Source of the DNA: Actinomycetes bacterium
GTDB lineage: Bacteria > Actinomycetota > Acidimicrobiia > Acidimicrobiales > RAAP-2
NCBI GenBank assembly: GCA_021785695.1
Contig: JAJYEQ010000004.1
Location: 11,840-75,839 of the forward strand
Length of the DNA: 64,000 nucleotides
Direction: 5' to 3'
The notes below the pieces were generated by a model. The model did no database searches and was not told the origin of the DNA. It saw only the letters and a program-made list of their open reading frames with translations. This document shows, in pieces, positions 31,114 to 51,699 of the stretch (position 1 is its first letter; every line of letters begins with the position of its first letter). A program made the position numbers and the translations under genes.

Positions 31114-31512
31114 GGGGACGATGACGACGGGCACCGTCGCGTGCTCGGCGAGCTCCAGGCTCGTCGACCCGAGCAGGCGCCCGCCGTGGGTGGTGTGTCC
31201 CCGGGTGCCGACCACGATCAGGTCAGCCGCCGGCTCGAGCTCGGCCGCGCGCAGCAGCGTCGTGCACGGGTCGCCGTCGTCGAAGGCGAAGTGGACCCGC
31301 GCGGCCGGCAGGCGCGACGCGGCGACCCGGGCGGCGACCTGGTCGGGCAGGTGGGTCACGTCGCGGTGCTCGTAGCGCTCTAGCAGCCCCGTCGCGTGGA
31401 GCACCAGCACTTCGGCGCGGCACGAGCCGGCCATCATCAAGGCGAAGTCGAGGGCCCCGTCGGCGTGCGCTGACCCGTCGTAGCCCACCACGATCCGCGA
31501 CGGTCTCTTCAT
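31087..31512 (-). CDS. universal stress protein (UspA family)
   Basis: 141 aa. IVVGYDGS at the N-terminus and the ATP-binding type motif VVGTRGHTTHGGRLLGSTSLELAEHATVPVVIV. The ATG at 31512 overlaps the deacetylase stop (ATGA). Confidence 0.88.
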   Translation of the reverse strand: MKRPSRIVVGYDGSAHADGALDFALMMAGSCRAEVLVLHATGLLERYEHRDVTHLPDQVAARVAASRLPAARVHFAFDDGDPCTTLLRAAELEPAADLIVVGTRGHTTHGGRLLGSTSLELAEHATVPVVIVPLQEGPAGA

Positions 31513-32546
31513 GGTGCCTCCCCGAGCGCCTGGGCCCGCACCAGCTGGAGCGTCTGGTGGCGCTCGGTGCGGATGCGGGCCACCTGGTCCACGCCGGGGC
31601 CGCCCTGGCTGCGATCCTCCAGCGGCGTGGGGGCGTCGAGCAGCGCGGCCAGCGTCCCGGCGACCGAGTGGCGCAGCGCGTCCAGGTCGTAGCCGCCCTC
31701 CAGGTAGATCGCCAGGCGGCCGGGGCGCGCGAAGCCGCGCACCCAGGCCGCGAGGCGCGCGTAGTCCCCGCTGGTCATCTCGAAGTCGGCCATCGGGTCG
31801 TCGCGGTGCCCGTCGAATCCAGCCGAGATCAGCGTCCAGGTGGGGTCGAAGTCGTCGATGACGGGCCCGGCGACCTCCTCGAGTGCCTGGAGGACCACGT
31901 CGCCGGTGGCCCCGGCGGGCAGGGGCAGGTTCACCGTGCGGTCCACGGCCGCCAGGCCGCCGACCTCGGCGGCCACGCCGCTGCCCGGGAAGAGCGGCCA
32001 CTCGTGGGCCGACACGTAGAGCACGTCGGGGTCGTTCCAGAAGATGGCCTGGGTCCCGTTGCCGTGGTGCACGTCCCAGTCGATCACCGCCACGCGCTCG
32101 CCGGCGCTGCGCAGGGCCGCGGCGGCCACCGCCACGTTGTTGATCAGGCAGAAGCCCATGGCGCGGTCGCGCAGGGCGTGGTGGCCCGGCGGGCGCACGG
32201 CCACGAAGCCGACGCCCTCGCCGCGCCGGTGGAGCTCCTCGAGCACGGCCAGCCCCGTCCCGGCGGCCTGCTGGGCGAGCGGCCACGAGTCGTAGGTGGC
32301 GTAGGTGTCGGGGTCCAACTCGCCGCCGCCCTCGAAGCAGAAGGCGCCCAGGTGGTCGAGGTACACCGGCTCGTGCACGCGCGCCAGCTCGGCGCGGCCG
32401 GCGCTGCGCACGGGCACGCGCACCACGTCGCTGTCCAGGTGGAGGTCGGCGACGCCCGCCCATACGGCGTCGAGGCGCGCGGGCCGCTCGGGATGCCCGG
32501 GATCCTCGTGTCCCGTCGAGTCGAGGATCTCGTGGGTGATCAGCAT
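31509..32546 (-). CDS. histone-deacetylase-family (AcuC/HDAC class) zinc amidohydrolase / protein or polyamine deacetylase
   Basis: RPPGHHA, DWDVHHGNGTQ and EGGY blocks of the arginase/deacetylase superfamily. 345 aa. Confidence 0.88.
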   Translation of the reverse strand: MLITHEILDSTGHEDPGHPERPARLDAVWAGVADLHLDSDVVRVPVRSAGRAELARVHEPVYLDHLGAFCFEGGGELDPDTYATYDSWPLAQQAAGTGLAVLEELHRRGEGVGFVAVRPPGHHALRDRAMGFCLINNVAVAAAALRSAGERVAVIDWDVHHGNGTQAIFWNDPDVLYVSAHEWPLFPGSGVAAEVGGLAAVDRTVNLPLPAGATGDVVLQALEEVAGPVIDDFDPTWTLISAGFDGHRDDPMADFEMTSGDYARLAAWVRGFARPGRLAIYLEGGYDLDALRHSVAGTLAALLDAPTPLEDRSQGGPGVDQVARIRTERHQTLQLVRAQALGEAP

Positions 32547-32547
32547 G

Positions 32548-33186
32548 TCAGCGCAGGGCGGTGGCCCGCGCCGCAGCCCAGCGCTGCCGGCGCGCCTCGC
32601 GGGCCGCCTCGCTCTCGGGCGTGGGGGCGATGGGGAAGCGCACGTAGATGATCTCGTCCTCCAGTCGCGCCGTCACGGGGAACCCCGAGGCGCGAAAGAC
32701 CGCCATCATCGCACGGTTGTCAGCCTGCGTCTCGGCGACCAGGGTGGTGATGCCGCAGTCCCAGGCGGCTTGGGCCAGATGGTCGAGCAGGAGCAGGCCC
32801 AGCCCCTGGTGCTGGTAGTTGTCCGACACCAGGAACGCCACCTCGGCACGATCCGAGGTGTCGATGCGGTCGTAGCGGCCCACCGCCACCAGGTCTTGGT
32901 GCTCGATGATGATGAAGGCCATGCGGTCCACGTAGTCCACGGTCGTCAGGTGGGTCAGCTCGGCCGCCGACAGCTCGGGATGCAGCGAGAAGTAGCGGCG
33001 AAAGACCGAGTCGGGGGAGAGCGCGCCGTGGAACCGCTGGAGGATCTCCGCGTCGTCGGGGCGGATGGGGCGCAGCACGTAGGTCACGCCGTGCTCGGTC
33101 GTCACGCGGCGGGTGAGGTGCGCCGGGTAGATCCCGGGCCGCGGCGACGGAGCCACCTCGGCGGGCCGGTCTTGCAACTCGATCAT
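32548..33186 (-). CDS. GNAT-family N-acetyltransferase (resembles the GNAT module of Pat-type protein lysine acetyltransferases)
   Basis: AcCoA-binding motif QHQGLGLLLLDHL. 212 aa from the ATG at 33186. The stop lies 1 nt before the deacetylase ATG. The upstream part of the 367-aa track ORF is non-coding run-on. Confidence 0.8.
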   Translation of the reverse strand: MIELQDRPAEVAPSPRPGIYPAHLTRRVTTEHGVTYVLRPIRPDDAEILQRFHGALSPDSVFRRYFSLHPELSAAELTHLTTVDYVDRMAFIIIEHQDLVAVGRYDRIDTSDRAEVAFLVSDNYQHQGLGLLLLDHLAQAAWDCGITTLVAETQADNRAMMAVFRASGFPVTARLEDEIIYVRFPIAPTPESEAAREARRQRWAAARATALR

Positions 33187-33390
33187 GGGGCGCCTTTCTC
33201 TACCCCCCGGGTTGACGTTCCCCCGTGGCCCCGTCATACCACCGCCGGGCGGTGCGCGCGACCCCAAAGTCGTGATGCTCGGCATCACTTTTGGTGATGA
33301 GCCATAGGGACCATCCGCACGAGCCAGATCAGGCGCCAGTAAACTGAGTGAAATCTCAGTAAGATTCTTGCGAGCGGAAGCGAGGTTCCC

Positions 33391-33606
33391 GTGGTGTCCG
33401 AGGCGATCATCCCCACCGATGACTGGTCGATCTACGACCGCGTCGCCGATGCCGCCGCCTCGGGGGCGATGGTGTCGCTGATGGTTGGCGACGAGGTCAT
33501 CGAGCTGCCCACCGATCTGGTCGACGCCCTGCGCCAGAGCGCCGAGTTCCTGGCGCGCGACAAGGCCGTCGTGATCACGTCGCGTTCGCGACTGCGCTTC
33601 GCCTAA
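33391..33606 (+). CDS. small acidic hypothetical protein (71 aa)
   Basis: GTG start, and strong GC3 bias typical of local coding sequence despite AT-richer flanks. No family recognised. It lies just upstream of pilB on the same strand. Confidence 0.45.
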   Translation: MVSEAIIPTDDWSIYDRVADAAASGAMVSLMVGDEVIELPTDLVDALRQSAEFLARDKAVVITSRSRLRFA

Positions 33607-33753
33607 ACGCCGCGCGGCGCGAACATACTTCACATTTCGCGACACGCTCACTACGCTGGGTCCGAGCAGAGGCGTGGCGTCGTTGCGTGGCGGGGTTGCG
33701 CTGGTGCTCGCCGTGTGAGAGATTCACTACCTACCGCGCAGAACGGAGTGTCG

Positions 33754-35610
33754 GTGGCGTTTAAGCGGCGAGACAAAGACGCTCCTCGAAAGGACCACAA
33801 GAAGGACGGGTCCCACAAGGGGCATGAGGCGCCGGCCCGCGCGTCGGGCGCGACCGCCGTGGGCCTCGTCGATCGGCAAGAAGACGAGTTCGCCGAGTTC
33901 GAGCTGGGGGGCATCAGCGCAGAGAACGCGCCCACCCCGGGCCGTCTGGGCGACACGCTGGTCAAGTCGGGAGCCATCACCACCGAGCAGCTGGCTCGGG
34001 CCCTCCACGAGCAGAAGCGCAGCGGCCAGCGCCTGGGCGAGATCCTGGTCGCTTCGGGCGCCATCGACGAGCGCTCCTTGACGACCGCCCTGTCGATCCT
34101 GCTGTCTTTGCCCGTCGTCAATCTCCACCAAGTGGATGTCGACGTGACGGTCCTCAAGATGCTCGAGGAGGAGTTCGCGCGCGAGTTCTTCGTCGTGCCA
34201 GTGCGGGACGACGCCGGAACCATCGTGGTGGCCTGCTCCGAGCCACGACCCGAGCTGACCGACGAGGTGGCGCGTCGCATTGGACGTCCCGTGCGCCTGG
34301 AAATCGCCTCGCTGTCGGACGTGCGGTGGGCCCTCGACTCCAACTACCGGGCCATCAGCGATGTGGGGTCCCTGGTCGAAGCCTTCAAGGCCGTCGAGGA
34401 GTCGCGGCGGCGCGGGCCCGACGTCGCGGTGCCCGAGATCGTGGCCGACGACGCGCCCATTGTCCAGGTGGTCGATCGGCTCATCACTCAGGCCATGCGC
34501 GACCGCGCCTCGGACGTCCACATCGAGCCCTCCAACGACGTGGTGCGCGTGCGCTTCCGCATCGACGGCGCACTCAGCCAGGTCCTCGAGCTGCCGGCCT
34601 CCATGGGGCCGGGACTGGTCAGCCGCATCAAGATCATGGCCGACATGAACATCGTCGAGCGCCGCCGTCCCCAGGACGGCCAACTCACCATGACGATCGA
34701 CGGCAAGGAGGTCGACGTCCGGGTCTCGACCGTGGCCACGATCATGGGCGAGAAGTGCGTGATGCGCATCTTGGACAAGACGCGCTCCCTGCTGCGCCTG
34801 GCCGACCTCGGGATGCCGACCGACACCCACCACGCCTACTCCAAGTTGGTGCGCGCCCCCTTCGGCATGGTGCTGTGCGCCGGGCCGACGGGGAGCGGCA
34901 AGACGACCACGCTGTACGCCACGGTGTCCGAGATCGGCAACGAGGCCATCAACGTCATGACCATCGAGGACCCCGTCGAGTACGTGTTCCCCATGATCAA
35001 CCAGATCCAGACCAACGACACCGCGGGCCTGACCTTTGCCACCGGCCTCAAGTCGATCCTGCGCCAGGACCCCGACGTGATCCTGGTCGGCGAGGTGCGT
35101 GACGTCGAGACGACGCGCGTGGCCGTCCAGTCCGCCCTGACCGGGCACTTCGTCATCTCGTCGATGCACGCGACCGACGCCGTGGCCGCCCTGCACCGCC
35201 TGCTCGACATGGGCATCGAGTCGTTCCTGGTGGCCTCGTCGGTGCTGGCCGTGGTCGGCCAGCGCCTGCTGCGCCGGATCTGCACCTCGTGCAAGACGCA
35301 GTACCGGCCGACCGACGAGGAGCTGCTCTTCTACGAGGAGAGCGGGGGCGAGCCCAAGGAGACCTTCTACCACGGCGCGGGGTGCAACTACTGCAGCCAC
35401 ACCGGCTACCAGGACCGCATCGGCATTTACGAGCTGCTCACCATGACACCCGAGATCCGGCGCCTGATCGTCGGCTGGGCGACCCAGGAGGAACTGCGGA
35501 CCCTCGCCGTCAAGCAGGGCATGCGCACGCTGCGCCAGGAGGCCCTCAACCTGGTGGCCCGGGACGTCACCACGATCAACGAGGTCATCCGGAGCGTGTA
35601 CACGCTATGA
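33754..35610 (+). CDS. pilB: type IV pilus assembly ATPase PilB (GspE family) with an N-terminal MshEN-type domain
   Basis: Walker A GPTGSGKTTTL, VILVGEVRD and a tetracysteine CTSC...CNYC. The N-terminal tandem RLG..LV..GAI motif is described in the findings. The GTG at 33754 follows GGAG. The track start at 33715 is possible. Confidence 0.92.
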   Translation: MAFKRRDKDAPRKDHKKDGSHKGHEAPARASGATAVGLVDRQEDEFAEFELGGISAENAPTPGRLGDTLVKSGAITTEQLARALHEQKRSGQRLGEILVASGAIDERSLTTALSILLSLPVVNLHQVDVDVTVLKMLEEEFAREFFVVPVRDDAGTIVVACSEPRPELTDEVARRIGRPVRLEIASLSDVRWALDSNYRAISDVGSLVEAFKAVEESRRRGPDVAVPEIVADDAPIVQVVDRLITQAMRDRASDVHIEPSNDVVRVRFRIDGALSQVLELPASMGPGLVSRIKIMADMNIVERRRPQDGQLTMTIDGKEVDVRVSTVATIMGEKCVMRILDKTRSLLRLADLGMPTDTHHAYSKLVRAPFGMVLCAGPTGSGKTTTLYATVSEIGNEAINVMTIEDPVEYVFPMINQIQTNDTAGLTFATGLKSILRQDPDVILVGEVRDVETTRVAVQSALTGHFVISSMHATDAVAALHRLLDMGIESFLVASSVLAVVGQRLLRRICTSCKTQYRPTDEELLFYEESGGEPKETFYHGAGCNYCSHTGYQDRIGIYELLTMTPEIRRLIVGWATQEELRTLAVKQGMRTLRQEALNLVARDVTTINEVIRSVYTL

Positions 35611-36986
35611 GTGCGGCCGAGGGCGACAAGTCGACGCGGGCCGACGCGAAGCGCGCGGCCAAGAAGGAGCACGAGGACGCCCGGGCTCGCCGGCGCGAGA
35701 ACGCGGTGGCCAAGAGCACCAGCAAGGATCGGCGGCGCACTCGCGGCAAGAAGCCCAAGAAGCAAAAGGATCTGCCGATAAAGCAGTTCAACTTCGTGGC
35801 CTTGGACGAGCAAGGGCAGTCGGTCAAGGGGGTCGAGAAGGCGATCTCGGCGGGGGCGGCCCACATGGCTCTCCTGCGCCGCGGCCTGCAGCCAGTCGAG
35901 GTGTCCGAGAAGCGCAGCATCCTCAAGTTCGAGATAACCAAGAAGATGGTCCCGCGCAAGGAGGTGATGAACTTCTCGCGTCAGCTCTCCGTCTTCATCC
36001 GTGCGGGAGTCCCCATCATGGAGTCGCTCGAGGTGATCCTCGAGGAGACGACGGGCAAGATAATGCGGATCGTGATCGCCGACATGATCGACTCGCTGCG
36101 CAATGGCGACACCTTCGCTGCTGCCGCGGCCGCTCATCCCGAGGCGTTTCCCAACTACTTCGTCGGGATCCTGGAGTCCGCCGAGTTGACGGGCAACCTG
36201 GACGTGGTCTTGAACCAGCTGGCCGACTACATGGACCGTGACCTGAAGGCGCGGGCCAAGATCACGTCGGCTCTGATCTATCCGGTGGTGGTCGCCGTGA
36301 TGTCGGTTGTGGTCGTGATCGTGTTGACCGTCTTCGTCCTCCCGCGCTTCGTGGTTTTCTTCAAGTCACTCGACGCCAAGCTCCCGCTGGTCACGCGGAT
36401 GCTGCTCAACTTCTCGGGCTATCTGACGCGGTGGTGGTTCCTCGTCGTGGGGGCGCTCGTTCTGCTCGTCGTCGGCTTCCTGACGATGCGCCGGACCCAG
36501 AACGGTCGAGCCATCCTGGACTCCTGGATTCTGCGCATCCCCGTCATCGGCGACATCACCCAGACGTCGATTCTCGAGCGCACCATGCGCATCCTCGCCT
36601 CGATGCTTCGAGCGGGTGTGGACATGCCTCGCTCGATGGCGGTGATGGCCGAGTCCGCTAACAACAGTGTGTATCGAACAGCCATCGAGCACATCCGCGA
36701 CGAGATGATGGAGGGCCAGGGTCTGGCGACACCGCTCGCGCGTACGGGGCTCTTCCCCGGAGCCGCGCGCCAGATGCTGCGGGTTGGCGAGGAGACCGGA
36801 ACGCTCGACACACAATTGGAAGTGGCCGCTGCCTACTATGGACGCGAACTCGAGACGAAGGTCGACCACGCGACGTCGCTCTTTGAGCCGGCCATCATTC
36901 TCGCAATGGGCGTCGTCGTAGGATTTGTTGCGATTGCGTTGATATCCGCAATGTATGGTATCTACAACCAGGTCCAGGTGCACTGA
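35607..36986 (+). CDS. pilC: type IV pilus platform protein PilC (GspF family)
   Basis: Two T2SSF-like repeats (FSRQLSVFIRAGVPI and RILASMLRAGVDM) and 3 TM segments. The ATG at 35607 overlaps the pilB TGA (ATGA). There is a K/R-rich N-terminal tail of about 60 aa. Confidence 0.9.
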   Translation: MSAAEGDKSTRADAKRAAKKEHEDARARRRENAVAKSTSKDRRRTRGKKPKKQKDLPIKQFNFVALDEQGQSVKGVEKAISAGAAHMALLRRGLQPVEVSEKRSILKFEITKKMVPRKEVMNFSRQLSVFIRAGVPIMESLEVILEETTGKIMRIVIADMIDSLRNGDTFAAAAAAHPEAFPNYFVGILESAELTGNLDVVLNQLADYMDRDLKARAKITSALIYPVVVAVMSVVVVIVLTVFVLPRFVVFFKSLDAKLPLVTRMLLNFSGYLTRWWFLVVGALVLLVVGFLTMRRTQNGRAILDSWILRIPVIGDITQTSILERTMRILASMLRAGVDMPRSMAVMAESANNSVYRTAIEHIRDEMMEGQGLATPLARTGLFPGAARQMLRVGEETGTLDTQLEVAAAYYGRELETKVDHATSLFEPAIILAMGVVVGFVAIALISAMYGIYNQVQVH

Positions 36987-37015
36987 AGGCTGTCGGCCGG
37001 GGCGGGGAGGTGTGC

Positions 37016-38482
37016 GTGAACGTTCGTCATCAACTCCCCCCGCGGGGGAGCATCGCAAAACCGGCGAAGCGGGAGTTAACCCGTCTCGTTCGTCTGCGGA
37101 GTGCCGGAGAGTCGGGATTCACCCTGATCGAGATGCTGGTGACCTTCCTCATCATCCCCGTCCTCATTGGTGCGGCGACGTTCTCGCTCATTGGGCTGAT
37201 GAAGGGCCACGCCACGGTGGCGAATCGCCTGACGTCGTCCGCGGACGCCCAAGTGGTCTCCTCGTCGTACTTCAACGATCTCCAGAGTGCGTCGCTGATC
37301 ACCCTGGACCCGTCCGCCGTCTCGCCCGCGGTGTGCCTCCCGAGCCTGCCGGGCGCCGACGAGTGGCTGCTAGGTCTCCAAATTCCAGCGTCACCGGGAC
37401 CGGCGACGCTGGACGTCTCCTACGGCCTGGTTCCCAGCTCCACCTTTGGCAACTTGTCCACGTGGGCGCTCGTGCGTTGGCAGTGCTCCATTGGCGACCA
37501 GGGCCAGGTCAACTACGACTCCATGGCTACCTTGGCCAGCCACGTGCCCAGTTCGAGCTTGAACGTCAGCATTTCAGGGGCCTCGTGCTCGCCTACGGCA
37601 TCGGGCTCGGAGTGCCTCACGAACCTCACGACGCCGACCCTGACTCAAGCGGCGAAGGGCGTGTGGATCTCGACGTACGGCATCCAGGCTGTAACGATCG
37701 ACGTCGTCGACACTGGGCTATCGGGGACCGGTGGCGGCTGGAGCTACAGCATTGGGGCGAGTCCTCGCAACTGGGTCCACGTGGTATGCGACCAGGGGAA
37801 CTGCAGCACCAGTGGCCAGCCGATTCAGAGCCCGGGCCTGGTCCTGGGTCTTGGTGGAGGATCGGGGAACACCACATTCAACGGCAACCCCTGCAATGTT
37901 TCTGCCGTTGCAGTGGGGCTCAATCGGTTGAAAATCTCCCAGCAAGGCAACTCGAATCCCTTCTCTGGTGTGACCAACGTCTACGGGACCGGCTACGGCA
38001 CCTCGACGACGGTCTACTTTGGTCCCCACAACAGCCTTCCACTGTCCATCAACTATGCGACGACATCCGATCCGCTGGCCAAGGACACTCTTTCCACGGC
38101 GGAGAGCCTGCTTGGATTCACCTCGATCAAGTACCTGGAGTCCTCCTGGCCCGCGACCTTCACTGCGGGCACGATGTACGTCATCGCATCAACGGCGCCG
38201 GCGCTGCAGACGATCCCCACGATCGACATGTCGAGCTCGGGTGGCTCCATCCTTCTGTGGGATGCCTTGCCATATAACACCTCACCGTCGCAGCTCGAAA
38301 TCAAAGGGAACACAACAGTCAATCTCGGACAGTACGGCATCCTGTATGCGCCAGCCACCACTCTGAGCGTGGCTGGAACAGCCAAGCTCACCGCGGAGAG
38401 TGTGATCGTGCAGAACCTGACCTGCAGTGGTGGAGGAACCGGCTCTAACTTGTCTCTCACCTCTCAGTACCCGAACTCCTAA
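37016..38482 (+). CDS. large pilin-like protein (prepilin-type N-terminal cleavage/methylation domain, about 488 aa), candidate minor pilin or tip adhesin
   Basis: Class III signal G|FTLIEMLV followed by a hydrophobic helix. The remainder is S/T/G/N-rich with 8 Cys. The GTG at 37016 is preceded by GGAGG (37006-37010). Locally lower GC. Confidence 0.8.
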   Translation: MNVRHQLPPRGSIAKPAKRELTRLVRLRSAGESGFTLIEMLVTFLIIPVLIGAATFSLIGLMKGHATVANRLTSSADAQVVSSSYFNDLQSASLITLDPSAVSPAVCLPSLPGADEWLLGLQIPASPGPATLDVSYGLVPSSTFGNLSTWALVRWQCSIGDQGQVNYDSMATLASHVPSSSLNVSISGASCSPTASGSECLTNLTTPTLTQAAKGVWISTYGIQAVTIDVVDTGLSGTGGGWSYSIGASPRNWVHVVCDQGNCSTSGQPIQSPGLVLGLGGGSGNTTFNGNPCNVSAVAVGLNRLKISQQGNSNPFSGVTNVYGTGYGTSTTVYFGPHNSLPLSINYATTSDPLAKDTLSTAESLLGFTSIKYLESSWPATFTAGTMYVIASTAPALQTIPTIDMSSSGGSILLWDALPYNTSPSQLEIKGNTTVNLGQYGILYAPATTLSVAGTAKLTAESVIVQNLTCSGGGTGSNLSLTSQYPNS

Positions 38483-38487
38483 GTCGT

Positions 38488-39102
38488 ATGTCCTCCTTGA
38501 CACCAAGCACCGTGGGGCTTCGAGCAGACGACGGCGCGCCTCGGAGGGGACGATCGGGTCGGCGTGTTGGTGAGCCCAGAAGATCGGACCGCGGTGACAC
38601 CCTGCTCGAGGTGCTGCTCGCCCTGCTGGTCATCTCCCTGACGTCAGTCGCGCTGATGTCGGGCTACGCCACGACGATCGCGGGATCGGCCACCCACCAG
38701 AGCCTCGCCGGACTCGACGTCGCTCTCCGCGACGCCGCCGAGCAGGTGACCTACCAGATCCAGTCGCAGCCGAGCCCGGACTACACCCCTTGCGCCACAG
38801 TTAGCGGTGCAGTCACCTCGGGCCAATCGGGCCAGACCAGCACGCTCAAGTATGGTCCGCACCTGTTGGATATGTCGGGTGTCGTACTGACAGGGGGGGA
38901 GTCGCTGTCGCTGAGTGCCCCCGAGTACTGGAATCTCCCGGCGAGCAACCCCACGTCCGGGACCTCCGGGACCTGGGTCAAGAACTGTCCGACCGACAAC
39001 CGACGCGGCGCGCAACTTCTGACCTTGAATGCCTTCGGACGTCACGGGGTGGCCGAAGCTGTGCAGATCGTCGTGATCGACCTTGCTGGTTCGGGTACCT
39101 AG
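38488..39102 (+). CDS. pseudopilin/minor pilin-like protein with an atypical class III signal (G|DTLLEVLLAL)
   Basis: A 36-aa Arg-rich leader, then G-DTLLE with Glu at +5 and a hydrophobic helix LLALLVISLTSVALM. 204 aa. Confidence 0.7.
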   Translation: MSSLTPSTVGLRADDGAPRRGRSGRRVGEPRRSDRGDTLLEVLLALLVISLTSVALMSGYATTIAGSATHQSLAGLDVALRDAAEQVTYQIQSQPSPDYTPCATVSGAVTSGQSGQTSTLKYGPHLLDMSGVVLTGGESLSLSAPEYWNLPASNPTSGTSGTWVKNCPTDNRRGAQLLTLNAFGRHGVAEAVQIVVIDLAGSGT

Positions 39103-39112
39103 GGGTGTCGTG

Positions 39113-39751
39113 ATGAGTGCCCTCTCGACGCGGCGTGCACCCGACGGCAACGTGGTGATAGGTGAGCGCACGGTGCGGATCGGCGTCGAGCGACGCGGCG
39201 CGGGGACGCGAGGCGATGCTGGCAGTTCGCTCATCTTCGCCCTGGCGTTCCTTTTGCTCGGCTCGTTGATTGTCACGACGCTGGCGGGATGGGCGAGCAG
39301 CGATCTGGGCAGCAGCGCCCACTTCCAGGTGGGGCGCAGCCTGACCTACAGCGCCGACGGGGCGGTCAGCGTAGCGATCAACGAGACGCGCTACTGGTAC
39401 CCCTCGAATGTAGGGACCAACGGCGCGTGGTCGGGCCCGTGTCCCAATGTTTCGGCTGTCGACTTTGGACAGACGACGATGCCCCCGGATGCACCGGCCT
39501 ACGAGCCGCCCATCTCCATCGACACCTGGTGCACGTTGCAGGTCGGTGGTGTGTTCAGCCGCCTGGTGACCGTTCAGGCCTACGACGTCAGCTCCGGTGG
39601 ATCGATACTGCCCAATGGGCCGACAAGCTCCTCGGTACCACTGGCCTCGGCGACGGTCGGGTATATCGACAGCCTGTCAAACCCTCCCGGAAGTTGCAGC
39701 ACTTCCACGTGTGATTTTTCGATGACGATCTTGACGTGGAGTGTGAAGTAG
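39113..39751 (+). CDS. membrane-anchored pilus-associated protein (PilX/GspK-like minor pilin lacking Glu+5)
   Basis: A basic N-terminus, then G|SSLIFALAFLLLGSLIVTTLAGW and a globular part with 4 Cys. The ATG at 39113 follows AGGGGTG. Assigned by position and N-terminal architecture only. Confidence 0.55.
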   Translation: MSALSTRRAPDGNVVIGERTVRIGVERRGAGTRGDAGSSLIFALAFLLLGSLIVTTLAGWASSDLGSSAHFQVGRSLTYSADGAVSVAINETRYWYPSNVGTNGAWSGPCPNVSAVDFGQTTMPPDAPAYEPPISIDTWCTLQVGGVFSRLVTVQAYDVSSGGSILPNGPTSSSVPLASATVGYIDSLSNPPGSCSTSTCDFSMTILTWSVK

Positions 39752-39859
39752 GGAGATACGACGTCTCGTACCCGCACCCGCCGGCACTACGCCACGGGCC
39801 CGCGACCGGGGATTGGGGCGCCCGCGGTGCAGCGTTGGGGATTCTCAGGGCTCTTCTAA

Positions 39860-39884
39860 ATTGTGCTGCGATTGTGTTGTGATT
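39860..39884 (+). promoter_or_regulatory. ATTGTG/TTGTG direct repeats upstream of pilA (candidate regulator or promoter element)
   Basis: ATTGTG at 39860 and 39871 (11-bp phasing) and TTGTGA at 39877. They lie in the AT-richest part of the 230-bp intergenic region preceding the major pilin gene. Confidence 0.25.
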
Positions 39885-39981
39885 CTTGCCAAACGCTCGG
39901 GCGCGTGATAGACAGGACCACGGAATTCGTGCGTGGCGAATATCCGTTTTGTTGGCTCCGGCTACTGAAAGGCAGGACGTA

Positions 39982-40545
39982 ATGATTTCTACCCTCCGGC
40001 GATTGCAGGAGCGCCGATCAAGCGGCGAGGGTGAGGGTGGATTCACCCTTATCGAGTTGCTGATCGTCATCGTGATCCTGGGTATTCTGGCCGCCATTGT
40101 GGTGTTTGCATTGGGCGGTGTGACCGGGAAGAGCTCGGTCGCGGCATGCCAGACCGACGCAAGCACCGTGAACACCGCGGTCGCCGCTCTCGAGGCCTCC
40201 AACCCACAATTGGGTGCTACTGGGGTAGATTCCCTAGCCGCCTGGAGCTCGGACATCATGGGGTCGAACAACGTGGACGCGGGCTTCACGATTAACGGTG
40301 GTCCCTTCCTACAGACCTGGCCGACCGGGAACGCAGCGACGTATTTGGTCGGGATTGCCTCCGATTCCACGGGGGCGGTGCTGGCACCGGGGGGTGCGAC
40401 AATCACAACGATCTCCGGCGGCAGCGCCCAGACGCCCCAAGCGGGCGACGTTGTGGTCGCCAAGACTACCTCCAGTCCGACGTGGTACGACGCGACGCTG
40501 AATCCCTCCGGAACCTATGGGGCGTGCTTTACGGCACTTGGGTAG
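39982..40545 (+). CDS. pilA: major type IV pilin (PilA-like)
   Basis: A 20-aa leader ending GEGEGG, then FTLIELLIVIVILGILAAIVVFAL (the canonical N-methyl-Phe / Glu+5 helix). 187 aa with two Cys (a D-region-type disulfide is possible). It has its own long upstream intergenic region. Confidence 0.9.
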   Translation: MISTLRRLQERRSSGEGEGGFTLIELLIVIVILGILAAIVVFALGGVTGKSSVAACQTDASTVNTAVAALEASNPQLGATGVDSLAAWSSDIMGSNNVDAGFTINGGPFLQTWPTGNAATYLVGIASDSTGAVLAPGGATITTISGGSAQTPQAGDVVVAKTTSSPTWYDATLNPSGTYGACFTALG

Positions 40546-40599
40546 CTGGGGACAAGACTCGTCGGATCTCGCTCAGAACGTGTGAGGGATGCGACGCGC

Positions 40600-40671
40600 A
40601 AGGACCGTTTCGACTGTCCTTCGGGGAAGAGGTGGGCGTGCTGCTCGACGAGCGGCGCTCACCTCTTCCCC
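40600..40671 (+). terminator. two consecutive stem-loops downstream of pilA (candidate intrinsic terminator or attenuator without a U-tract)
   Basis: AAGGAC(N10)GTCCTT at 40600-40621. GGGGAAGAGGTG(N25)CACCTCTTCCCC at 40623-40671 is a perfect 12-bp stem. They sit between pilA and pilT. Confidence 0.45.
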
Positions 40672-40700
40672 GTTGGCAGAGCGTGACGACGAGAGGTCAC

Positions 40701-41804
40701 ATGATGGCACCTGACGTAGATGTGAGTGGAGTTGACCAGTGGATCCAGATCCTCTGGGAGAACCAGGGCTCGGACCTGCTGCTCGCCGGGGGATCGGCGC
40801 CGCGGATCCGCGTCAACGGGCGCCTGATACCCGTGGAGGGTGCTCCGGTTCTCGCTGCCGGCGACGTCAGCAAACTGGCCTTCCCCCTCCTCACCAAGGG
40901 GCAGCAGAAGACATTTGACGAGATGATGGACGTGGACTTCGCGTTCTCGTGGCGCGACCTAGCGCGCGTGCGCGGCAGCATCTTCACCCAGCGCGGGCAG
41001 ACCGCCATATCCCTGCGCATCATCCCGACGAAGATTCCGAGCTTCGAGCAGTTGGGGCTCCCCTGGGTGGCCGAGTGGGTCTCCACCCAGCCCCGTGGAT
41101 TCGTTCTGGTGACCGGGCCGACGGGCTCGGGCAAGTCGACCACGTTGGCCTCGATCATCGATCGAATTAACGACACGCGCGCGACCCACATCCTCACCAT
41201 CGAGGACCCGGTCGAGTACGTGCACCACCACAAGGTCTCCGCGGTGAGCCAGCGCGAGATCGGACTGGACAGCCCGTCCTTCGAGCGGGCTCTGCGCTCC
41301 GCCCTGCGCGAGGACCCCGACATCTTGCTGCTCGGCGAGATGCGCGACATCGACTCGATCCAGATGGCCCTCACCATGGCAGAGACCGGCCACCTGGTCT
41401 TCGCGACGCTGCACACCAACGACGCACCCCAGGCGATCGATCGCATCATCGACGTGTTCCCCGCTTGGCGCCAGGAGCAGACGCGCGTGCAGCTGGCCGC
41501 CTCGCTGACCGCGATCATCGCCCAGCGCCTGGTGCCCAAGAACGACGGCGGCATGGTGGCCGCCTTCGAGGTGCTGGTGGCCACCAGTCCGGTGCGCAAC
41601 CTCATCCGGGAGGGACGCTCCAACCAGCTCATCAATGTGATGTTCACCAACGCCAAGGAAGGCATGCAGGTGATGGAGGCCGACCTGGCCAAGCTGGTGG
41701 TGGACGGGACGATATCGTACGAGAGTGCGGTCGCCACCAGCGCTCACCAGAAGGAGCTCACCCGCTCCCTGGAGTTCTTGGGGTTCAAGATCCCCAAGGA
41801 GTGA
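40701..41804 (+). CDS. pilT: type IV pilus retraction ATPase PilT
   Basis: 367 aa from the ATG at 40701 (RBS GAGAGG). Walker A GPTGSGKSTTL, ILLLGEMRD, GHLVFATLHTN and a PilT-type N-terminus (LLLAGGSAPRIRVNG). No MshEN or Zn-finger, consistent with PilT rather than PilB. Confidence 0.9.
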   Translation: MMAPDVDVSGVDQWIQILWENQGSDLLLAGGSAPRIRVNGRLIPVEGAPVLAAGDVSKLAFPLLTKGQQKTFDEMMDVDFAFSWRDLARVRGSIFTQRGQTAISLRIIPTKIPSFEQLGLPWVAEWVSTQPRGFVLVTGPTGSGKSTTLASIIDRINDTRATHILTIEDPVEYVHHHKVSAVSQREIGLDSPSFERALRSALREDPDILLLGEMRDIDSIQMALTMAETGHLVFATLHTNDAPQAIDRIIDVFPAWRQEQTRVQLAASLTAIIAQRLVPKNDGGMVAAFEVLVATSPVRNLIREGRSNQLINVMFTNAKEGMQVMEADLAKLVVDGTISYESAVATSAHQKELTRSLEFLGFKIPKE

Positions 41805-42516: not shown

Positions 42517-43305
42517 CTATCCCAGCAGGGTGCGCAAGGCCGGCCAGGGGCTGAGGATCTGGGGGGTGAACAGGATCGCGACACCGGCCCCGATCGCCAG
42601 GAACACGCCGTAGGGGATGGGCTGGCGTCGCTGGAGACGGTGCGCGGCGAGCAGCGAGACGCCCACGATCGACCCCACCAGGTTGGCCACGAAGAAGCCG
42701 ACCACCACCGCGCTGACACTCAGCCAGCCGAGGGCGAATCCGAGCAGCGGTGCCAGCCGTACGTCTCCTGCACCCAGGGCCCGCGGGCTCACGACGTGGA
42801 TGGTGCCAAAGAGCGTGAGCCACGCGAGCGCGCAGAGAGCTCCGACCACGCTGTGGTGCCACTGATCGAGCAGGGCGGAGGATCCGAGCAGCAGGGCAAT
42901 CACGAGCACGCTGGCTGGATACACGATGCGCGAGGGCAGCCGCAAGTGCTCGACGTCGATGATGGCGAGTGCCAGGAGACTGGCCGCGCACACCAGGAAC
43001 GCCGCCAGCTGCGGGTGCGGGCCGATGCGCCACGCGACCAGCCCGAAGCTCAGCGCCGTTCCTGACTCGACGAGCGGGTAGCGCACCGAGATGGGGGCTC
43101 GGCACGAGCGGCACCGTCCACGCAGCACCAACCACGAGATGACGGGGACGTTGTCGCGGACCGCGATCGGCGTGTGACACGCGGGGCACGCCGATCGCGG
43201 CGCGACCACGGAGAGCCCTTGGGGGACCCGGTAGATGACGACGTTGAGGAACGATCCAACGATGAGGCCGGCGATCGCGCTCCAGATCACCAGCGCCGCG
43301 GTCAC
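42517..43305 (-). CDS. pilD: prepilin peptidase / N-methyltransferase PilD (peptidase A24)
   Basis: N-terminal GSFLNVVIYR, CPAC...CRSC zinc-knuckle, a polytopic membrane domain with GAGDVRL and a second Asp region. 262 aa. Confidence 0.9.
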   Translation of the reverse strand: MTAALVIWSAIAGLIVGSFLNVVIYRVPQGLSVVAPRSACPACHTPIAVRDNVPVISWLVLRGRCRSCRAPISVRYPLVESGTALSFGLVAWRIGPHPQLAAFLVCAASLLALAIIDVEHLRLPSRIVYPASVLVIALLLGSSALLDQWHHSVVGALCALAWLTLFGTIHVVSPRALGAGDVRLAPLLGFALGWLSVSAVVVGFFVANLVGSIVGVSLLAAHRLQRRQPIPYGVFLAIGAGVAILFTPQILSPWPALRTLLG

Positions 43306-43345
43306 GCCTGCACACTACTGAGTGCGTCTCGTGGTGGTGCGATGG

Positions 43346-43357
43346 CGTCACGTGACG
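43346..43357. promoter_or_regulatory. perfect 12-bp palindrome CGTCACGTGACG in the divergent pilD / E1-like gene intergenic region
   Basis: Read directly in the sequence. An extra CGTCAC half-site lies at 43430-43435. Confidence 0.25.
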
Positions 43358-43461
43358 GGCCCCGACCATGCACCGCTCCCTCCAGCACGATCGGTAGCCT
43401 GAATGTGGCGCCAAGCCGTGCGCCCGGTCCGTCACGAGCGAGGTGTTCGGAAAGGAGATCA

Positions 43462-46344
43462 GTGGCGCTTCGCTATCGATACGGAGCGAGTTTCATCGAC
43501 GAGGCCTCGGGGGTGCGCTTCGAGGGACATCACCCGCTCGAACGACCGGACCTGTGGCGCCGCTACCTCGACGATGCCGAGGGCAAGTACCGCAGCTACG
43601 GTTTCGAGAGCACCTTGCGGCGCCGCGATCTCGAAGAGGGTCGTGGCGTCCCTCTGTTCTTTGTGGGCTTCGCTCCCGACGGTGAGCCGGTCGCGGGCCT
43701 GCGATTTCACGGGCCACTCGAGAACCGCTGGGGTGCCGCGCTCATGGAGGAGTTGGCCTCTCTCCCCGAGATCGACGAGATCGGTGACTTGATCGACCGT
43801 GAGGCCCGCCTGGGCGTCATCGAGGCCAAGGGCGGATGGGCCAGGGGCGCCTCAGTCCTCGGCGTGCGGATGGTCGCGACGATCTCGCGGATGATGACGC
43901 ACGCGGCGACGTGGCTCGGCGCGGAGCGCACCATCGCCGCCGTCTCCGACCAGCTGATTCCCGTCGGCAAGGTGGCCGGGGGCGAGGTCCTGAGCCGCAA
44001 CTGGGTGCCCTTCCCCGACGAGCGCTATCGCACCTACGCCGTCACCTGGCAGCGCGGACGCACCTACGACCTGGCCGACGACGAGAACCGTCGGGCTCTG
44101 CGGCGCGAGGCCGAGCAGCTAGCTCGAGGTCCGCGCCAGACCGGTCCCGCATCACTGGACGCGGAGTCTCCGCGCACCCAGTCATTTCGCCCCCTGGTGC
44201 TCGACGTCGCCACGCGCAGCGACCGCGAGGTCCTGCGCATCTTGCGCGAGGATCCGGCCCTGCAGGCGATTGACCGTCTGGCCGAGCAGCAGGCCCAGGT
44301 GGCCGAGCTCAAGCCCACCCCCTCAGACAAGGAGCTCGACGAGCCGGCGCGCTGGGTCTACTACCCGTGGCGGCGCGCGGTCGTGCGCCTGCTCGGTCCT
44401 CGCGCGTTCAGCCGGGTGCGCCTGGACCGGAATCGGCCCAAGCTCACCGCCGAGGAGCAGCATCACCTGCGGGGCCTGCGCGTCGGCATCGTCGGCGCGA
44501 GCGCCGGGCACTCGGTCGCCCACGTCATCGCCCTGGAGGGACTGGCCGGCGAGCTGCGTCTCGCCGACCTCGACACGGTGGCCCTGACCAACCTCAACCG
44601 CTTGCCGGTCAGCGTGCTGGACCTCGGGATCAACAAGGCGATCGTCGCGGCTCGCCGGATCGGCGAGATCGACCCCTACGTGTCCCTAATGGTGCTGAGC
44701 GAGGGCCTGACGCACGAGAACCTCGACCAGTTCCTCGACGGTCTCGACGTGGTCATCGAGGAGTGCGACTCGCTGGACATGAAGTACCTGGTGCGCGAGG
44801 CGGCCCGGGCCCGCCGGATCCCGGTCCTCATGGAGACCAGCGACCGCGGGGTGCTCGATGTGGAGCGCTTCGACCTCGAGCCCGACCGGCCGCTCTTCCA
44901 CGGGCTCCTCGGCGACATGACCGCCGAGCGCCTGGCCAGCCTGACGCTGTTCGAGAAGGGGCCCTACCTGCTGCGTCTCCTGGGCACGGCCGAGGTGTCG
45001 GCGCGCGGCGCCGTGACCTTCTTCGAGCTGGGCGCCACGATCACCGGATGGCCCCAGCTGGCCAGCGAGGTGACGCTGGGTGCCGCCTCGGTGGCCACCG
45101 CTCTGCGCCACCTCGCCCTGGGCGCCGATCTGCCCTCGGGCCGGGTCCGCATCGACCTGGACGAGGCCCTCGGCGGGATCGCACCCGTCGACTTGGAGAT
45201 CGACTCCGACATTGACCTCGACGCCGCGCAACCGGAGGACCCCGTGCCCGTCGACGCCGACGACATCACGCTGATCGTCGATGCCGCTCGACGCGCGCCG
45301 TCGGGGGGAAACGTCCAGCCCTGGCGCTTCGAGGCCGACGACGACGAGGTGCGCTTCTTCGTGGTCGCCGACCACTCCGCCGCGATGGACGTCGCGCACC
45401 GGGGCACCTACGTGGCCCTGGGCGCGGCGGTGCTGAACGCGCGTACCGCTGCTGCGGCGACCGAGCGCCTGGGTGAGGTTCAGCTCTTCCCCCAGGGGGT
45501 CGCCAGCTCGCACGTGGCCACGCTGCACCTGGGTCGCGGCGCGGACTCCCAGCTCGCCGCGCTCTATCCCGCCGTGCCGCGCCGGATGACGAACCGCCAG
45601 GCCGGGGACCCCGAGGCCACGTTGAGCAGTGAGGATGTGGAGTCTCTCCAGCGGGCCGCCAGCGCCGAGGGCGCGCGGCTGCGCCTGCTGCGCTCACCCA
45701 CCGAGCTGGGCGCCGCGGGTGACATCCTGGGTCGCTGCGACCGCCTGCGCTTCCTCATCCCGTCCGTGCACGCCCAGATGCTCGGTGAGATCCGCCTGCC
45801 GGGACGTGACGCGCTCGACGAGGGCCTCGATGTGCGGACCCTGGAGATGGACCCGACGAGCGTGGCCGCCCTGGGGCTGCTCGGGCGCCCCGAGGTCATG
45901 GCGCACCTGGCCGAGTGGCGGGCGGGTCGGATGCTCGGCCTGCGCACCCAACTCTTGGTCTCGACGTCGTCGGCCCTGGCGGCGATCACGGTGCCACGCG
46001 TCGAGCCCCTGTGGTACATGCGCGCGGGGGCGGCGACCGAGCGCCTCTGGCTGACGGCGACGGTGGCTGGCCTGGCCGTGCAGCCGGTGGTCCCCGTCTT
46101 CCTCTACGCGACCAACGACTTCGAGCGACGCGAGCTCGGCGGCGAGCGCTATCTCGACGAGATGTACGATCTGGCCACACGCTTCAACGATCTGTTCGAT
46201 CTGGATCCCGGAGAGACGATCGCGATGGTGTTGCGGGTGTCGGTCGCGACGCCCGCCAGCGCGCACAGCATTCGTCGACGGCTCGACGACGTCTGGGTGC
46301 GCACAACAGCGCACGACAATGACGAGTCCGTTGTCGAAATGTAG
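43462..46344 (+). CDS. 960-aa multidomain protein: unknown N-terminal domain + ThiF/E1-like adenylyltransferase + tandem nitroreductase-like domain (Rv1355c/MoeY-like core)
   Basis: The GTG at 43462 follows AAAGGAGA. ARWVYYPWRRAVVRLLGPRAFSRVRLDRNR, then the Rossmann motif VGIVGASAGHSV and LADLD.V..TNLNR (E1-like). Later RRAPSGGNVQPWRF (nitroreductase/Acg-like). The first 200 aa or so are not assignable. Confidence 0.8.
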   Translation: MALRYRYGASFIDEASGVRFEGHHPLERPDLWRRYLDDAEGKYRSYGFESTLRRRDLEEGRGVPLFFVGFAPDGEPVAGLRFHGPLENRWGAALMEELASLPEIDEIGDLIDREARLGVIEAKGGWARGASVLGVRMVATISRMMTHAATWLGAERTIAAVSDQLIPVGKVAGGEVLSRNWVPFPDERYRTYAVTWQRGRTYDLADDENRRALRREAEQLARGPRQTGPASLDAESPRTQSFRPLVLDVATRSDREVLRILREDPALQAIDRLAEQQAQVAELKPTPSDKELDEPARWVYYPWRRAVVRLLGPRAFSRVRLDRNRPKLTAEEQHHLRGLRVGIVGASAGHSVAHVIALEGLAGELRLADLDTVALTNLNRLPVSVLDLGINKAIVAARRIGEIDPYVSLMVLSEGLTHENLDQFLDGLDVVIEECDSLDMKYLVREAARARRIPVLMETSDRGVLDVERFDLEPDRPLFHGLLGDMTAERLASLTLFEKGPYLLRLLGTAEVSARGAVTFFELGATITGWPQLASEVTLGAASVATALRHLALGADLPSGRVRIDLDEALGGIAPVDLEIDSDIDLDAAQPEDPVPVDADDITLIVDAARRAPSGGNVQPWRFEADDDEVRFFVVADHSAAMDVAHRGTYVALGAAVLNARTAAAATERLGEVQLFPQGVASSHVATLHLGRGADSQLAALYPAVPRRMTNRQAGDPEATLSSEDVESLQRAASAEGARLRLLRSPTELGAAGDILGRCDRLRFLIPSVHAQMLGEIRLPGRDALDEGLDVRTLEMDPTSVAALGLLGRPEVMAHLAEWRAGRMLGLRTQLLVSTSSALAAITVPRVEPLWYMRAGAATERLWLTATVAGLAVQPVVPVFLYATNDFERRELGGERYLDEMYDLATRFNDLFDLDPGETIAMVLRVSVATPASAHSIRRRLDDVWVRTTAHDNDESVVEM

Positions 46345-46356
46345 CGAAACGATATC

Positions 46357-46386
46357 TTGCCGAATTTTCCTATTTGGCCCTACGAT
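46357..46386 (+). promoter_or_regulatory. candidate sigma-70-type promoter for the c-di-GMP operon
   Basis: TTGCCG (46357-46362), an 18-nt spacer, then TACGAT (46381-46386), in an AT-rich 89-bp intergenic region. Confidence 0.25.
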
Positions 46387-46433
46387 GGCGGGACAGAACG
46401 GCGTTGAGTCGCCGGCGCGAAAGGCCTGTCCTG

Positions 46434-48722: not shown

Positions 48723-49528
48723 GCCTGCACAGCCCGGCTCCCTCGACTCCCGGCGAGTCCGAAGGGCCGTGGCTCTTCGAGACGATGCTGGCCGAGCTGG
48801 TCGACGGCGAGCTCGGGCTGGGGTTCATCTACAGCCTGCTGGCGCGGCTGGCCGAGCGCTACGAGCTCAGCGACGCCGTGGTCGTCTTGCGCCACGAGTC
48901 GTTCGGCACCCAGAGCTTCCGCCTCGGCGGACGCCCGGTGCGCCCCGCGATGGTCGCCCAGCTGACCGATACCCCGGGGGTCCTCTGCGAGCCCGCCGTG
49001 GTCCCGGACCACGAGTGCGACGCCGTGCGCACGGCGTCGCAGCTGGCTCTCTCACTGCACCTGGCGCGCTTCAACGCCGGTCACGACGCCCTGACGGGCG
49101 TCGACAACCGGCGCACATTCGACCACGCCCTCGACGTGGGCTCCGCTCGCAGCGCCCGCTACGGCTGGGCCTTCACCCTGGTCATGATCGACCTCGACGA
49201 CTTCAAGGCGCTCAACGACCGGGCGGGCCACGCCTACGGTGACCACCTGCTGCGCCAGTTCGCGTTTGCCCTGCGGCGCAGCGTCCGCAACGGCGACACC
49301 GCGGCGCGTCTGGGGGGTGACGAGTTCGGCGTGATCCTGGCCAGTGCCGAGGGAGCCGAGGCCAGCGGGTTCCTCGACCGCCTGCGCGCCCAGGTCAAGT
49401 CCGTGGCCGACGATCTGGACTTCACGGCGGGCTGGGCGAACTCGCCCAAGGACTCGACGGATCCCGAGGAGCTCTACCGCATCGCGGACCACCGGCTCTA
49501 CGAGAAGAAGGGGGAGGGGCGATCGTGA
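48719..49528 (+). CDS. GGDEF-domain diguanylate cyclase with an uncharacterised N-terminal domain
   Basis: RLGGDEF with the I-site RNGD. The GTG at 48719 overlaps the upstream TGA (GTGA). Confidence 0.85.
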   Translation: MSLHSPAPSTPGESEGPWLFETMLAELVDGELGLGFIYSLLARLAERYELSDAVVVLRHESFGTQSFRLGGRPVRPAMVAQLTDTPGVLCEPAVVPDHECDAVRTASQLALSLHLARFNAGHDALTGVDNRRTFDHALDVGSARSARYGWAFTLVMIDLDDFKALNDRAGHAYGDHLLRQFAFALRRSVRNGDTAARLGGDEFGVILASAEGAEASGFLDRLRAQVKSVADDLDFTAGWANSPKDSTDPEELYRIADHRLYEKKGEGRS

Positions 49529-50112
49529 CCGCGCGGATCGACGAGGACTTCGAGCTCGAGTTGCGGAGCCTGCCCGGGGTGCTGAACGTGGCCATCGAGC
49601 ACGACGTCACCGCCGGAGGGCGCGTCACGCTGCTCGTCGTGGGCCCCCATCCCGACAAGACGGCCCAGGCGGCCGTCCAGGTCGCCGGCCTCTACTACCC
49701 GGAGATCACGGTCGTCGTCGAGCAGGCCGCCGAGACCTCGCCCGTGGTCGTGGGCGACGCCCGCGTCATCCTGGTGCGAGCGGACTACGACGCTGCTGCC
49801 GGCTCGTGCGAGGTGGAGCTGGCGCACCGCGGACGCGTGGGCATCGGCCACGCGTCCAGCGGGCCCCTGATCGGCGGGGCGGAGGCGACGCTGCTGGCCC
49901 TGCGCGACCTCGGCTACGACGTGCCCTTCCGCCTGGCCGGCGCCACGACGGTGCCGGCTCTGCGCACCTGGCCGGTGCTGGTCACGATGCGCTCGACGGC
50001 CGACGGCCAGGAGCGCTTCGGCGTGGCCCTGGCGGGTGACGACGTCGTCGCCGCCGCGCGAGCCGCGCTCGACGCGCTCAACCGTTATCCCATGGCCTTC
50101 CGTCACGGATAG
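49525..50112 (+). CDS. hypothetical protein (195 aa, no recognised family)
   Basis: GTGA overlap with the upstream GGDEF gene and RBS GGGGGAGGGG at 49510-19. Its stop TAG is immediately followed by the ATG of the next gene. High GC3. There appear to be two alpha/beta halves. Confidence 0.6.
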   Translation: MTARIDEDFELELRSLPGVLNVAIEHDVTAGGRVTLLVVGPHPDKTAQAAVQVAGLYYPEITVVVEQAAETSPVVVGDARVILVRADYDAAAGSCEVELAHRGRVGIGHASSGPLIGGAEATLLALRDLGYDVPFRLAGATTVPALRTWPVLVTMRSTADGQERFGVALAGDDVVAAARAALDALNRYPMAFRHG

Positions 50113-51654: not shown

Positions 51655-51699
51655 TGTTGAACCTTCAGTAGGCTGACCCCGACGAGGGGGTAGGCAGGC

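Follow-up and report, generated by a model that had tools for sequence, protein, structure and literature searches.

The pilB gene at 33754-35610 (+) of a 64,000-nt stretch of Actinomycetes DNA (NCBI GenBank assembly GCA_021785695.1, contig JAJYEQ010000004.1, positions 11,840 to 75,839; hereafter, the window) encodes a protein with a complete MshEN domain—that is, an MshEN_N bundle of two 24-residue motifs, followed by the MshEN_C (N1) subdomain and then by the ATPase module. Taken as one joint reading, the product is likely to be the extension (assembly) ATPase of the monoderm type IV pilus (T4P) system of an uncultured Acidimicrobiales bacterium and to bind cyclic dimeric GMP (c-di-GMP). Wang et al. 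2016 described the MshEN domain and its motif, along with its occurrence in PilB/GspE ATPases and its broad phyletic distribution, and named Arthrobacter, Cellulomonas, Eggerthella, and Rubrobacter as Actinobacteria with MshEN as their only recognised c-di-GMP receptor; none of the proteins tested in that study was actinobacterial (PMC5013675). The documented link between c-di-GMP and T4P in Actinomycetota is transcriptional, namely the RsiG-WhiG switch of pilus genes in Rubrobacter (PMC8325347).

Coordinates below are positions in the window, and residue numbers refer to the 618-aa product unless the long open reading frame (ORF) is named. The features of the gene are as follows.

33744-33747 (+): ribosome-binding site GGAG, 6 nt upstream of GTG 33754 (read from the sequence)
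33754-35610 (+): pilB, T4P extension ATPase of the GspE/PilB superfamily, 618 aa (Pfam, TIGR02538, and PDB matches)
33754-33942 (+): charged 63-residue leader, probably disordered (alignment of 40 homologues; low model confidence just before the motif)
33943-34014 (+): MshEN motif 1, RLGDTLVKSGAITTEQLARALHEQ, residues 64-87, counterpart of MshE R9-Q32 (translation, MshE alignment)
34015-34029 (+): spacer KRSGQ, 5 residues (translation, alignment; no indels in 120 homologues)
34030-34101 (+): MshEN motif 2, RLGEILVASGAIDERSLTTALSIL, residues 93-116, counterpart of MshE R38-Q61, last residue Leu, not Gln
34102-34350 (+): MshEN_C / T2SSE_N1 alpha-beta subdomain (Pfam PF05157, residues 130-212 of the 631-aa ORF; three strands plus helices in the model)
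34444-35592 (+): T2SSE ATPase region, comprising N2 and the C-terminal ATPase with a Zn-binding tetracysteine (PF00437, residues 244-626 of the 631-aa ORF)

The tandem motif

Translation of 33943-34101 (+) gives RLGDTLVKSGAITTEQLARALHEQ-KRSGQ-RLGEILVASGAIDERSLTTALSIL, two 24-residue motifs separated by a 5-residue spacer, and is identical to the reading given in a first-pass annotation made from the sequence alone. That annotation had allowed motif 1 a single deviation, an Ala at an aliphatic site, which is indeed found at position 11, and had counted a spacer of exactly 5 residues, which is also the constant length in 120 homologues. Its statement that motif 2 deviates only at the terminal Gln holds for the Leu at that place but overlooks a second departure, an Ala at aliphatic position 11; the resulting G-A-I at positions 10-12 is likewise seen in the second motif of the validated binders Myxococcus xanthus PilB and PA14_29490. 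The placement of the motif at the PilB N-terminus has to be corrected: with the start at GTG 33754, the motif begins at residue 64, behind the charged leader, and therefore covers residues 64-116 and not the extreme N-terminus.

Given the six-frame amino-acid composition of the window, the number of tandem matches with a 5-residue spacer expected by chance is ~1e-16, and 20,000 shuffles of the protein yielded 0 half-motifs. A relaxed 24-residue pattern, run over all six frames of the window, gave only two in-gene matches, both in pilB.

Family assignment and contact residues

The curated NCBIfam model NF053729 (c-di-GMP_motif; 53 positions, cutoff 38 bits) matches PilB at 67.2 bits for the full protein and 73.0 bits for a 60-aa fragment, scores above those of the validated binders PilF GSPII-B, PilF GSPII-C, and M. 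xanthus PilB. Control scores with the same model were as follows.

MshE: 86.5 bits, binder
PilF GSPII-B: 63.5 bits, binder
M. xanthus PilB: 62.4 bits, binder
PilF GSPII-C: 62.3 bits, binder
PilF GSPII-A: 55.4 bits, no c-di-GMP binding

GSPII-A passes the cutoff as well, and a pass therefore denotes family membership, not ligand binding. The claim that the tandem motif is of the MshEN type is thus borne out both by this hidden Markov model (HMM) and by an alignment with Vibrio cholerae MshE residues 9-66, which contains no gaps and shows 31% identity over the domain. Changing the final Leu of motif 2 to Gln in silico raises the NF053729 score by only 1 bit. The Pfam family named 'MshEN' (PF05157) was rejected as a test of the motif, as it matches only residues 130-212 of the long ORF, that is, the C-subdomain without the binding helices, and therefore says nothing on the motif; Wang et al. 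themselves noted that PF05157 does not cover the binding helices (PMC5013675).

In the alignment, MshE residues R9, L10, G11, D12, G18, L25, L29, Q32, R38, L39, G40, G47, L54, and L58 are kept, and I19 is changed to Ala, F48 to Ala, D41 to Glu, and Q61 to Leu. All hydrophobic and glycine contact residues of MshE are thus retained, as is the motif-1 Gln, and the base-contact set is present in both motifs (R64/L65/G66/G73/L80/L84 in motif 1 and R93/L94/G95/G102/L109/L113 in motif 2). In MshE, mutation of position 1 (R, K, or L in the family), L2, G3, L17, L21, or the turn Gly at position 10 resulted in a more than 10-fold loss or in no binding (PMC5013675).

Predicted fold

An AlphaFold2 (AF2) model of residues 70-240 (long-ORF numbering), built on a 50-sequence alignment, has a mean confidence (pLDDT) of 87.6 and shows four helices (8-16, 21-34, 38-44, and 50-61 in model numbering), followed by the strands and helices of a beta-alpha-beta, or alpha/beta, subdomain. 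Whether the motif helices could adopt the four-helix MshEN arrangement had been left to modelling by the first-pass annotation; this arrangement is predicted in the model, whose top Foldseek match is MshE with c-di-GMP (5HTL; E 3e-12, TMt 0.84, root-mean-square deviation 2.3 Å, 137 columns), with c-di-GMP complexes of PilF GSPII-B coming next. In the non-binder PilF GSPII-A, a stabilised N-cap helix turn blocks the pocket. R64 of the present protein is preceded by P-T-P-G, and no helix is predicted N-terminal of it—albeit with low confidence in this part of the model—which would argue against a pocket block of the GSPII-A type.

The motif-2 glutamine and its conservation

Conservation was assessed in the 120 closest homologues, 65-93% identical to the query, out of thousands that exist in all. 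The Gln at position 24 of motif 1 is present in 120 of the 120, whereas position 24 of motif 2 is F in 77, Y in 23, L in 9, M in 7, V in 3, T in 1, and Q in 0. The spacer has 5 residues in every homologue, and the contact positions are nearly invariant in motifs 1 and 2, respectively (G3 in 117 and 120, L17 in 118 and 120, and L21 in 118 and 116). Among more distant relatives, Acidimicrobiia PilBs of ~50-58% identity mostly have Gln at position 24 of motif 2; the residue is Lys in one Acidimicrobiaceae subclade and His in Chloroflexi and Dormibacterota relatives. Over loci L001-L080, this position differs from lineage to lineage, and the Gln of motif 1 hardly varies. Many relatives in the clade carry Leu at position 1 of motif 2, as does PilF GSPII-B; in the query, position 1 is Arg in both motifs. 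To judge from these alignments, the loss of the Gln is a derived, clade-wide variant amid otherwise strong constraint, a pattern more in keeping with a site that still works than with one in decay.

Each terminal Gln of MshE forms two hydrogen bonds with ribose and phosphate (PMC5013675). The Q61A mutant binds 11.8-fold more weakly (dissociation constant, Kd, 5.9 µM) and Q32A 9-fold more weakly (PMC5013675 supplement). In PilF GSPII-B, Q218E results in a 77-fold loss with binding still at 460 nM, and only the double Gln mutant abolishes binding (PMC11731258). Single-Gln mutants of MshE and PilF still bind, and one Leu should therefore weaken, not abolish, binding. The hydrophobic or aromatic residue at position 24 (F/Y/L/M), the invariant motif-1 Gln, the retention of all other contact residues, and the leader with its conserved MAFKKKDK and disordered part may together define a variant, asymmetric MshEN site, which could differ from the MshE prototype in binding mode, in ligand preference, or in the range of its affinity; the hydrogen bonds could, for example, give way to packing of an aromatic or aliphatic side chain on the ribose or a base. 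This idea is considered quite unlikely.

Gene model and identity of PilB

The longest ORF spans 33715-35610 (+; 631 aa). GTG 33754 is most likely the start codon, because GGAG lies 6 nt upstream, homologues begin with MAFKKK, and exactly the 618-aa product is called on public metagenome contigs (European Nucleotide Archive, ENA). The GC content at third codon positions (GC3) in this frame is 0.91, as for a real gene, in a window of 71.6% GC overall.

The protein matches Pfam T2SSE (PF00437) at 408 bits and contains the Walker A sequence GPTGSGKT, the sequence VILVGEVRD (Asp/Walker B region), and a CTSC...CNYC zinc motif. Its closest solved relatives in the PDB are PilB of Geobacter and of Myxococcus and PilF of Thermus (E 1e-127 to 1e-137). 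It falls below the cutoffs of both the PilB equivalog model TIGR02538 (535.4 bits against 675.65) and the GspE equivalog model TIGR02533 (536.8 bits against 630.25); the label PilB therefore rests on gene context, and the protein as such is a superfamily member. The nearest genomes are metagenome-assembled genomes of uncultured Acidimicrobiales/Acidimicrobiaceae, at no more than 94% protein identity, and one member of the same 90% cluster bears the NCBI name 'GspE/PulE family protein [Acidimicrobiales bacterium]'.

Neither MshE nor M. xanthus PilB has a charged leader of the kind seen here. In all close homologues, the leader consists of a conserved basic start, MAFK(K/R)(K/R)DK, and then a highly variable low-complexity segment of ~30 to >200 residues that extends to the motif-1 GRLG. 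The leader may serve in docking, or in contact with the membrane or a partner.

Comparison with characterised MshEN proteins

V. cholerae MshE (5HTL; PMC5013675) shares with the query the 24+5+24 motif layout, the predicted fold, and the position of the domain ahead of a GspE/PilB-type extension ATPase. The two differ in that the MshE motif starts at residue 9 and the query motif at residue 64 after the leader, in the replacement of Q61 by Leu and of I19 and F48 by Ala, and in the host, here a monoderm actinobacterium. Thermus thermophilus PilF GSPII-B (8PDK; PMC11731258), the second-best structural neighbour, is likewise an MshEN-type domain that binds c-di-GMP within a PilB-family ATPase, and its example shows that the consensus need not be matched in full. 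However, PilF has three tandem GSPII domains and the query one, and GSPII-B keeps both terminal Gln residues, which are important for its 6 nM affinity, where the query has one.

The MshEN-positive PilB/PilB2 proteins of M. xanthus, Chloracidobacterium thermophilum, and Clostridium perfringens bind c-di-GMP (PMC11731258, PMC6957770). Like the query, they have a single N-terminal MshEN domain followed by the PilB ATPase, and over its full length the query is most similar to this group (Geobacter and Myxococcus PilB). M. xanthus PilB shares the motif-2 G-A-I with the query, but both M. xanthus and Geobacter PilB, the two that were aligned, end motif 2 in Gln (...LSKQ) where the query has Leu. 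The documented outputs of the group include regulation of exopolysaccharide (EPS); no evidence of such a role was seen for the query.

Ligand binding and proposed mechanism

PilB is predicted, with reasonable though not full confidence, to bind c-di-GMP physiologically. The first-pass proposal of a direct c-di-GMP receptor is supported as a prediction by the HMM, the MshE alignment, the predicted fold, the conservation in 120 homologues, and the c-di-GMP enzymes in the window.

By analogy with 5HTL, the four-helix bundle would bind one extended c-di-GMP monomer, with one ribose-phosphate contact missing. R64 and R93 would stack on the two guanines, and two leucine triangles—L65 with L109 and L113, and L94 with L80 and L84—would lie under the bases. 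Guanine O6/N7 would be read by the backbone amides of G66/D67 and G95/E96, and Q87 would bond one ribose-phosphate. Residue 116 is Leu, so the symmetric ribose-phosphate contact should be missing and the affinity weaker, roughly an order of magnitude below that of an all-consensus site and probably in the high-nM to low-µM range. Occupancy would change how the N-terminal domain is oriented towards the ATPase hexamer and would favour pilus extension or surface attachment at high c-di-GMP, and at low c-di-GMP, PilT would retract the pili; the signal could be made and broken down by the GGDEF, EAL, and HD-GYP enzymes encoded nearby. These output steps are inferred from studies of MshE, PilF, and PilB, and their direction is the weakest step. 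Extension is promoted when MshE binds c-di-GMP, and PilT-dependent retraction is correlated with low c-di-GMP (PMC7096442); in PilF, Q190E lowers twitching and adhesion by ~40% (PMC11731258).

Evidence against binding and alternative explanations

Several observations weigh against the predicted binding or its output, and many of them bear on the explanation that PilB has kept the MshEN fold but is not a physiological c-di-GMP sensor. Its affinity would then fall short of cellular levels owing to the motif-2 Gln loss or to inter-subdomain or leader contacts, and the domain would be a structural or protein-docking module that might, for example, engage the platform proteins or an adaptor, the latter on the pattern of Xanthomonas PilB-PilZ. 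Gln occupies position 24 in motif 1 but not in motif 2, and the strict consensus is thus broken; Leu is not even among the residues of the relaxed motif of Wang et al. 2016 at this last position (Q, N, K, R, Y, W, S, or T), Gln is never found there in the 120 closest homologues, and the loss is of the kind that costs 11.8-fold in MshE Q61A and 77-fold in PilF Q218E. The NF053729 cutoff had to be rejected as proof of binding, as the non-binder GSPII-A scores 55.4 bits, and in GSPII-A a consensus motif alone is insufficient, since restoring the consensus does not by itself regain binding (PMC12002112). Among the further structural neighbours of the AF2 model are the N-domain of XpsE, a non-binder, and that of Xanthomonas PilB in complex with PilZ; indeed, the non-binders XpsE (2D27/2D28), PilF GSPII-A (9G1W), and Xanthomonas PilB (7LKM) have the same fold and are all matched by the model. 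No binding measurement was found in the literature for any actinobacterial PilB, the query included. The pilus locus and the c-di-GMP gene cluster, described below, are adjacent in only 3 of ~10 orthologous loci with enough flank, with 7 GGDEF/EAL loci lacking pil genes upstream, so that the linkage of the two is suggestive, not strong. As to output, the effect of c-di-GMP on the ATPase activity of C. thermophilum PilB in vitro was negligible and EPS signalling was proposed, and EPS signalling is also the output discussed for Myxococcus, so that neither the direction nor the nature of the output is certain.

Against a mere fold without a sensor stand the intact G3, L2, L17, and L21 of both motifs, at which mutation abolishes or strongly lowers binding, and the residual affinities of Q61A alone (5.9 µM) and Q218E (460 nM). 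Moreover, the known non-binders are changed at many contact residues and the query at one: XpsE carries G11V, L29R, R38G, G40L, L54H, L58C, and Q61V, and motif 2 of PilF GSPII-A is only 45% identical at key positions, with a helix extension that is not predicted in the query. The contact residues are also strongly conserved throughout the clade, a constraint for which a pure scaffold would have no need, and this explanation is accordingly considered unlikely. That the site binds another nucleotide—3',3'-cyclic GMP-AMP (3',3'-cGAMP), pGpG, or cyclic dimeric AMP (c-di-AMP)—with asymmetric half-sites reflecting an asymmetric ligand would account for the clade-wide asymmetry at position 24, the only point in its favour. 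It is very improbable, however, given that both half-sites keep the G-(D/E) backbone pair reading guanine O6/N7 and the leucine triangles, that MshEN bound no other adenine or guanine nucleotides by differential scanning fluorimetry (PMC5013675 supplement), and that the window contains c-di-GMP enzymes, with no other dinucleotide cyclase detected in it. A chance match, or a motif in a non-coding or wrongly called frame, is refuted by the expectation of ~1e-16, the GC3, the thousands of homologues, and the calling of the exact protein in public metagenomes.

The pilus locus

The genes that give PilB its context lie directly downstream.

35607-36986 (+): pilC platform protein (T2SSF), 459 aa; translationally coupled, with a start that overlaps the stop codon of pilB
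37016-38482 (+): large pilin-like protein, 488 aa, with class III signal peptide GESG/FTLIEMLV
38611-39751 (+): two small pilin-block proteins, 163 and 212 aa, the second with a weak PilX_N match; probably minor pilus components
39982-40545 (+): pilin, 187 aa, GEGG/FTLIELLIV, N_methyl 30.6 bits; likely the major pilin
40704-41804 (+): pilT-like retraction ATPase, 366 aa
41811-42515: DUF429 gene
42517-43305 (-): pilD prepilin peptidase (A24)

The arrangement of pilB with pilC, two G/FTLIE pilins, pilT, and pilD is kept in relatives. The pilin/minor-pilin block (~37000-40700) has a GC content of 0.59-0.67 against 0.716 overall. In several close relatives (L001, L004-L008), both flanks align at 70-88% while the block itself lacks similarity at the DNA level, in line with the expectation that pilin genes diverge or are replaced rapidly. 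A 71-aa ORF directly upstream of pilB (33391-33606, +), with no Pfam match, keeps its place in relatives with as little as 35-40% identity and is present in duplicate in L007 and L008; its product may be an unrecognised pilus-associated small protein. Also upstream of pilB, and divergent from it, are a histone-deacetylase-family gene and a GNAT acetyltransferase gene (31509-33651, -), which a universal stress protein gene adjoins in identical contigs. In the upstream part (10-31 kb), only metabolic and regulatory genes were seen, with no further pilus or c-di-GMP genes.

A sigma-70 promoter scan of the locus gave none, and terminator-like sites occur at chance level. WhiG/sigma-28-type promoters (TAAA-N-GCCGATAA), as in Rubrobacter pilus clusters, were considered and rejected: 5 loose matches were found against 3.3 expected, none of them upstream of pil genes.

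c-di-GMP turnover genes in the window

Five c-di-GMP turnover genes lie 11-21 kb downstream of pilB (46374-57034), with GGDEF or HD...GYP signatures intact in all, giving three intact GGDEF domains and two HD-GYP proteins in the window.

46374-48722 (+): GAF-GGDEF-EAL protein; GGDEF and DDFGTG motifs intact
48587-49528 (+): GGDEF diguanylate cyclase; true start probably later in the ORF
51700-53223 (+): PAS-GAF-HD-GYP phosphodiesterase; HDVGK and GYP motifs
53310-54845 (+): second, paralogous PAS-GAF-HD-GYP phosphodiesterase
54725-57034 (-): PAS-PAS-GGDEF-EAL protein

The order pilT-DUF429-pilD-ThiF/nitroreductase-GGDEF/EAL-GGDEF was seen in 3 metagenome loci at 55-64% protein identity. The ThiF/nitroreductase gene (43174-46344, +) encodes a protein of ~1,000 aa with ThiF-like and nitroreductase-like domains, and is tightly syntenic with the trio of genes for the GGDEF-EAL protein, the GGDEF protein, and a 195-aa protein in those metagenome loci with enough flank to include it. 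The turnover cluster also encodes two proteins that have no Pfam match (49525-50112 and 50113-51654). No c-di-GMP riboswitch or any other Rfam family was found in the window.

Significance

A PilB bearing an MshEN domain is an ordinary, already-described arrangement that involves no new mechanism, and its motif is recognised automatically by the NCBIfam model. For an uncultured lineage, the present case offers a functional prediction that is sound, together with a clade-specific motif-2 variant that is modestly interesting. If the predicted binding is true, it would provide the first biochemical evidence that we have found of c-di-GMP acting directly on the T4P motor in Actinomycetota, and would open surface attachment to functional study in the uncultured Acidimicrobiales, a group widespread in soil and water.

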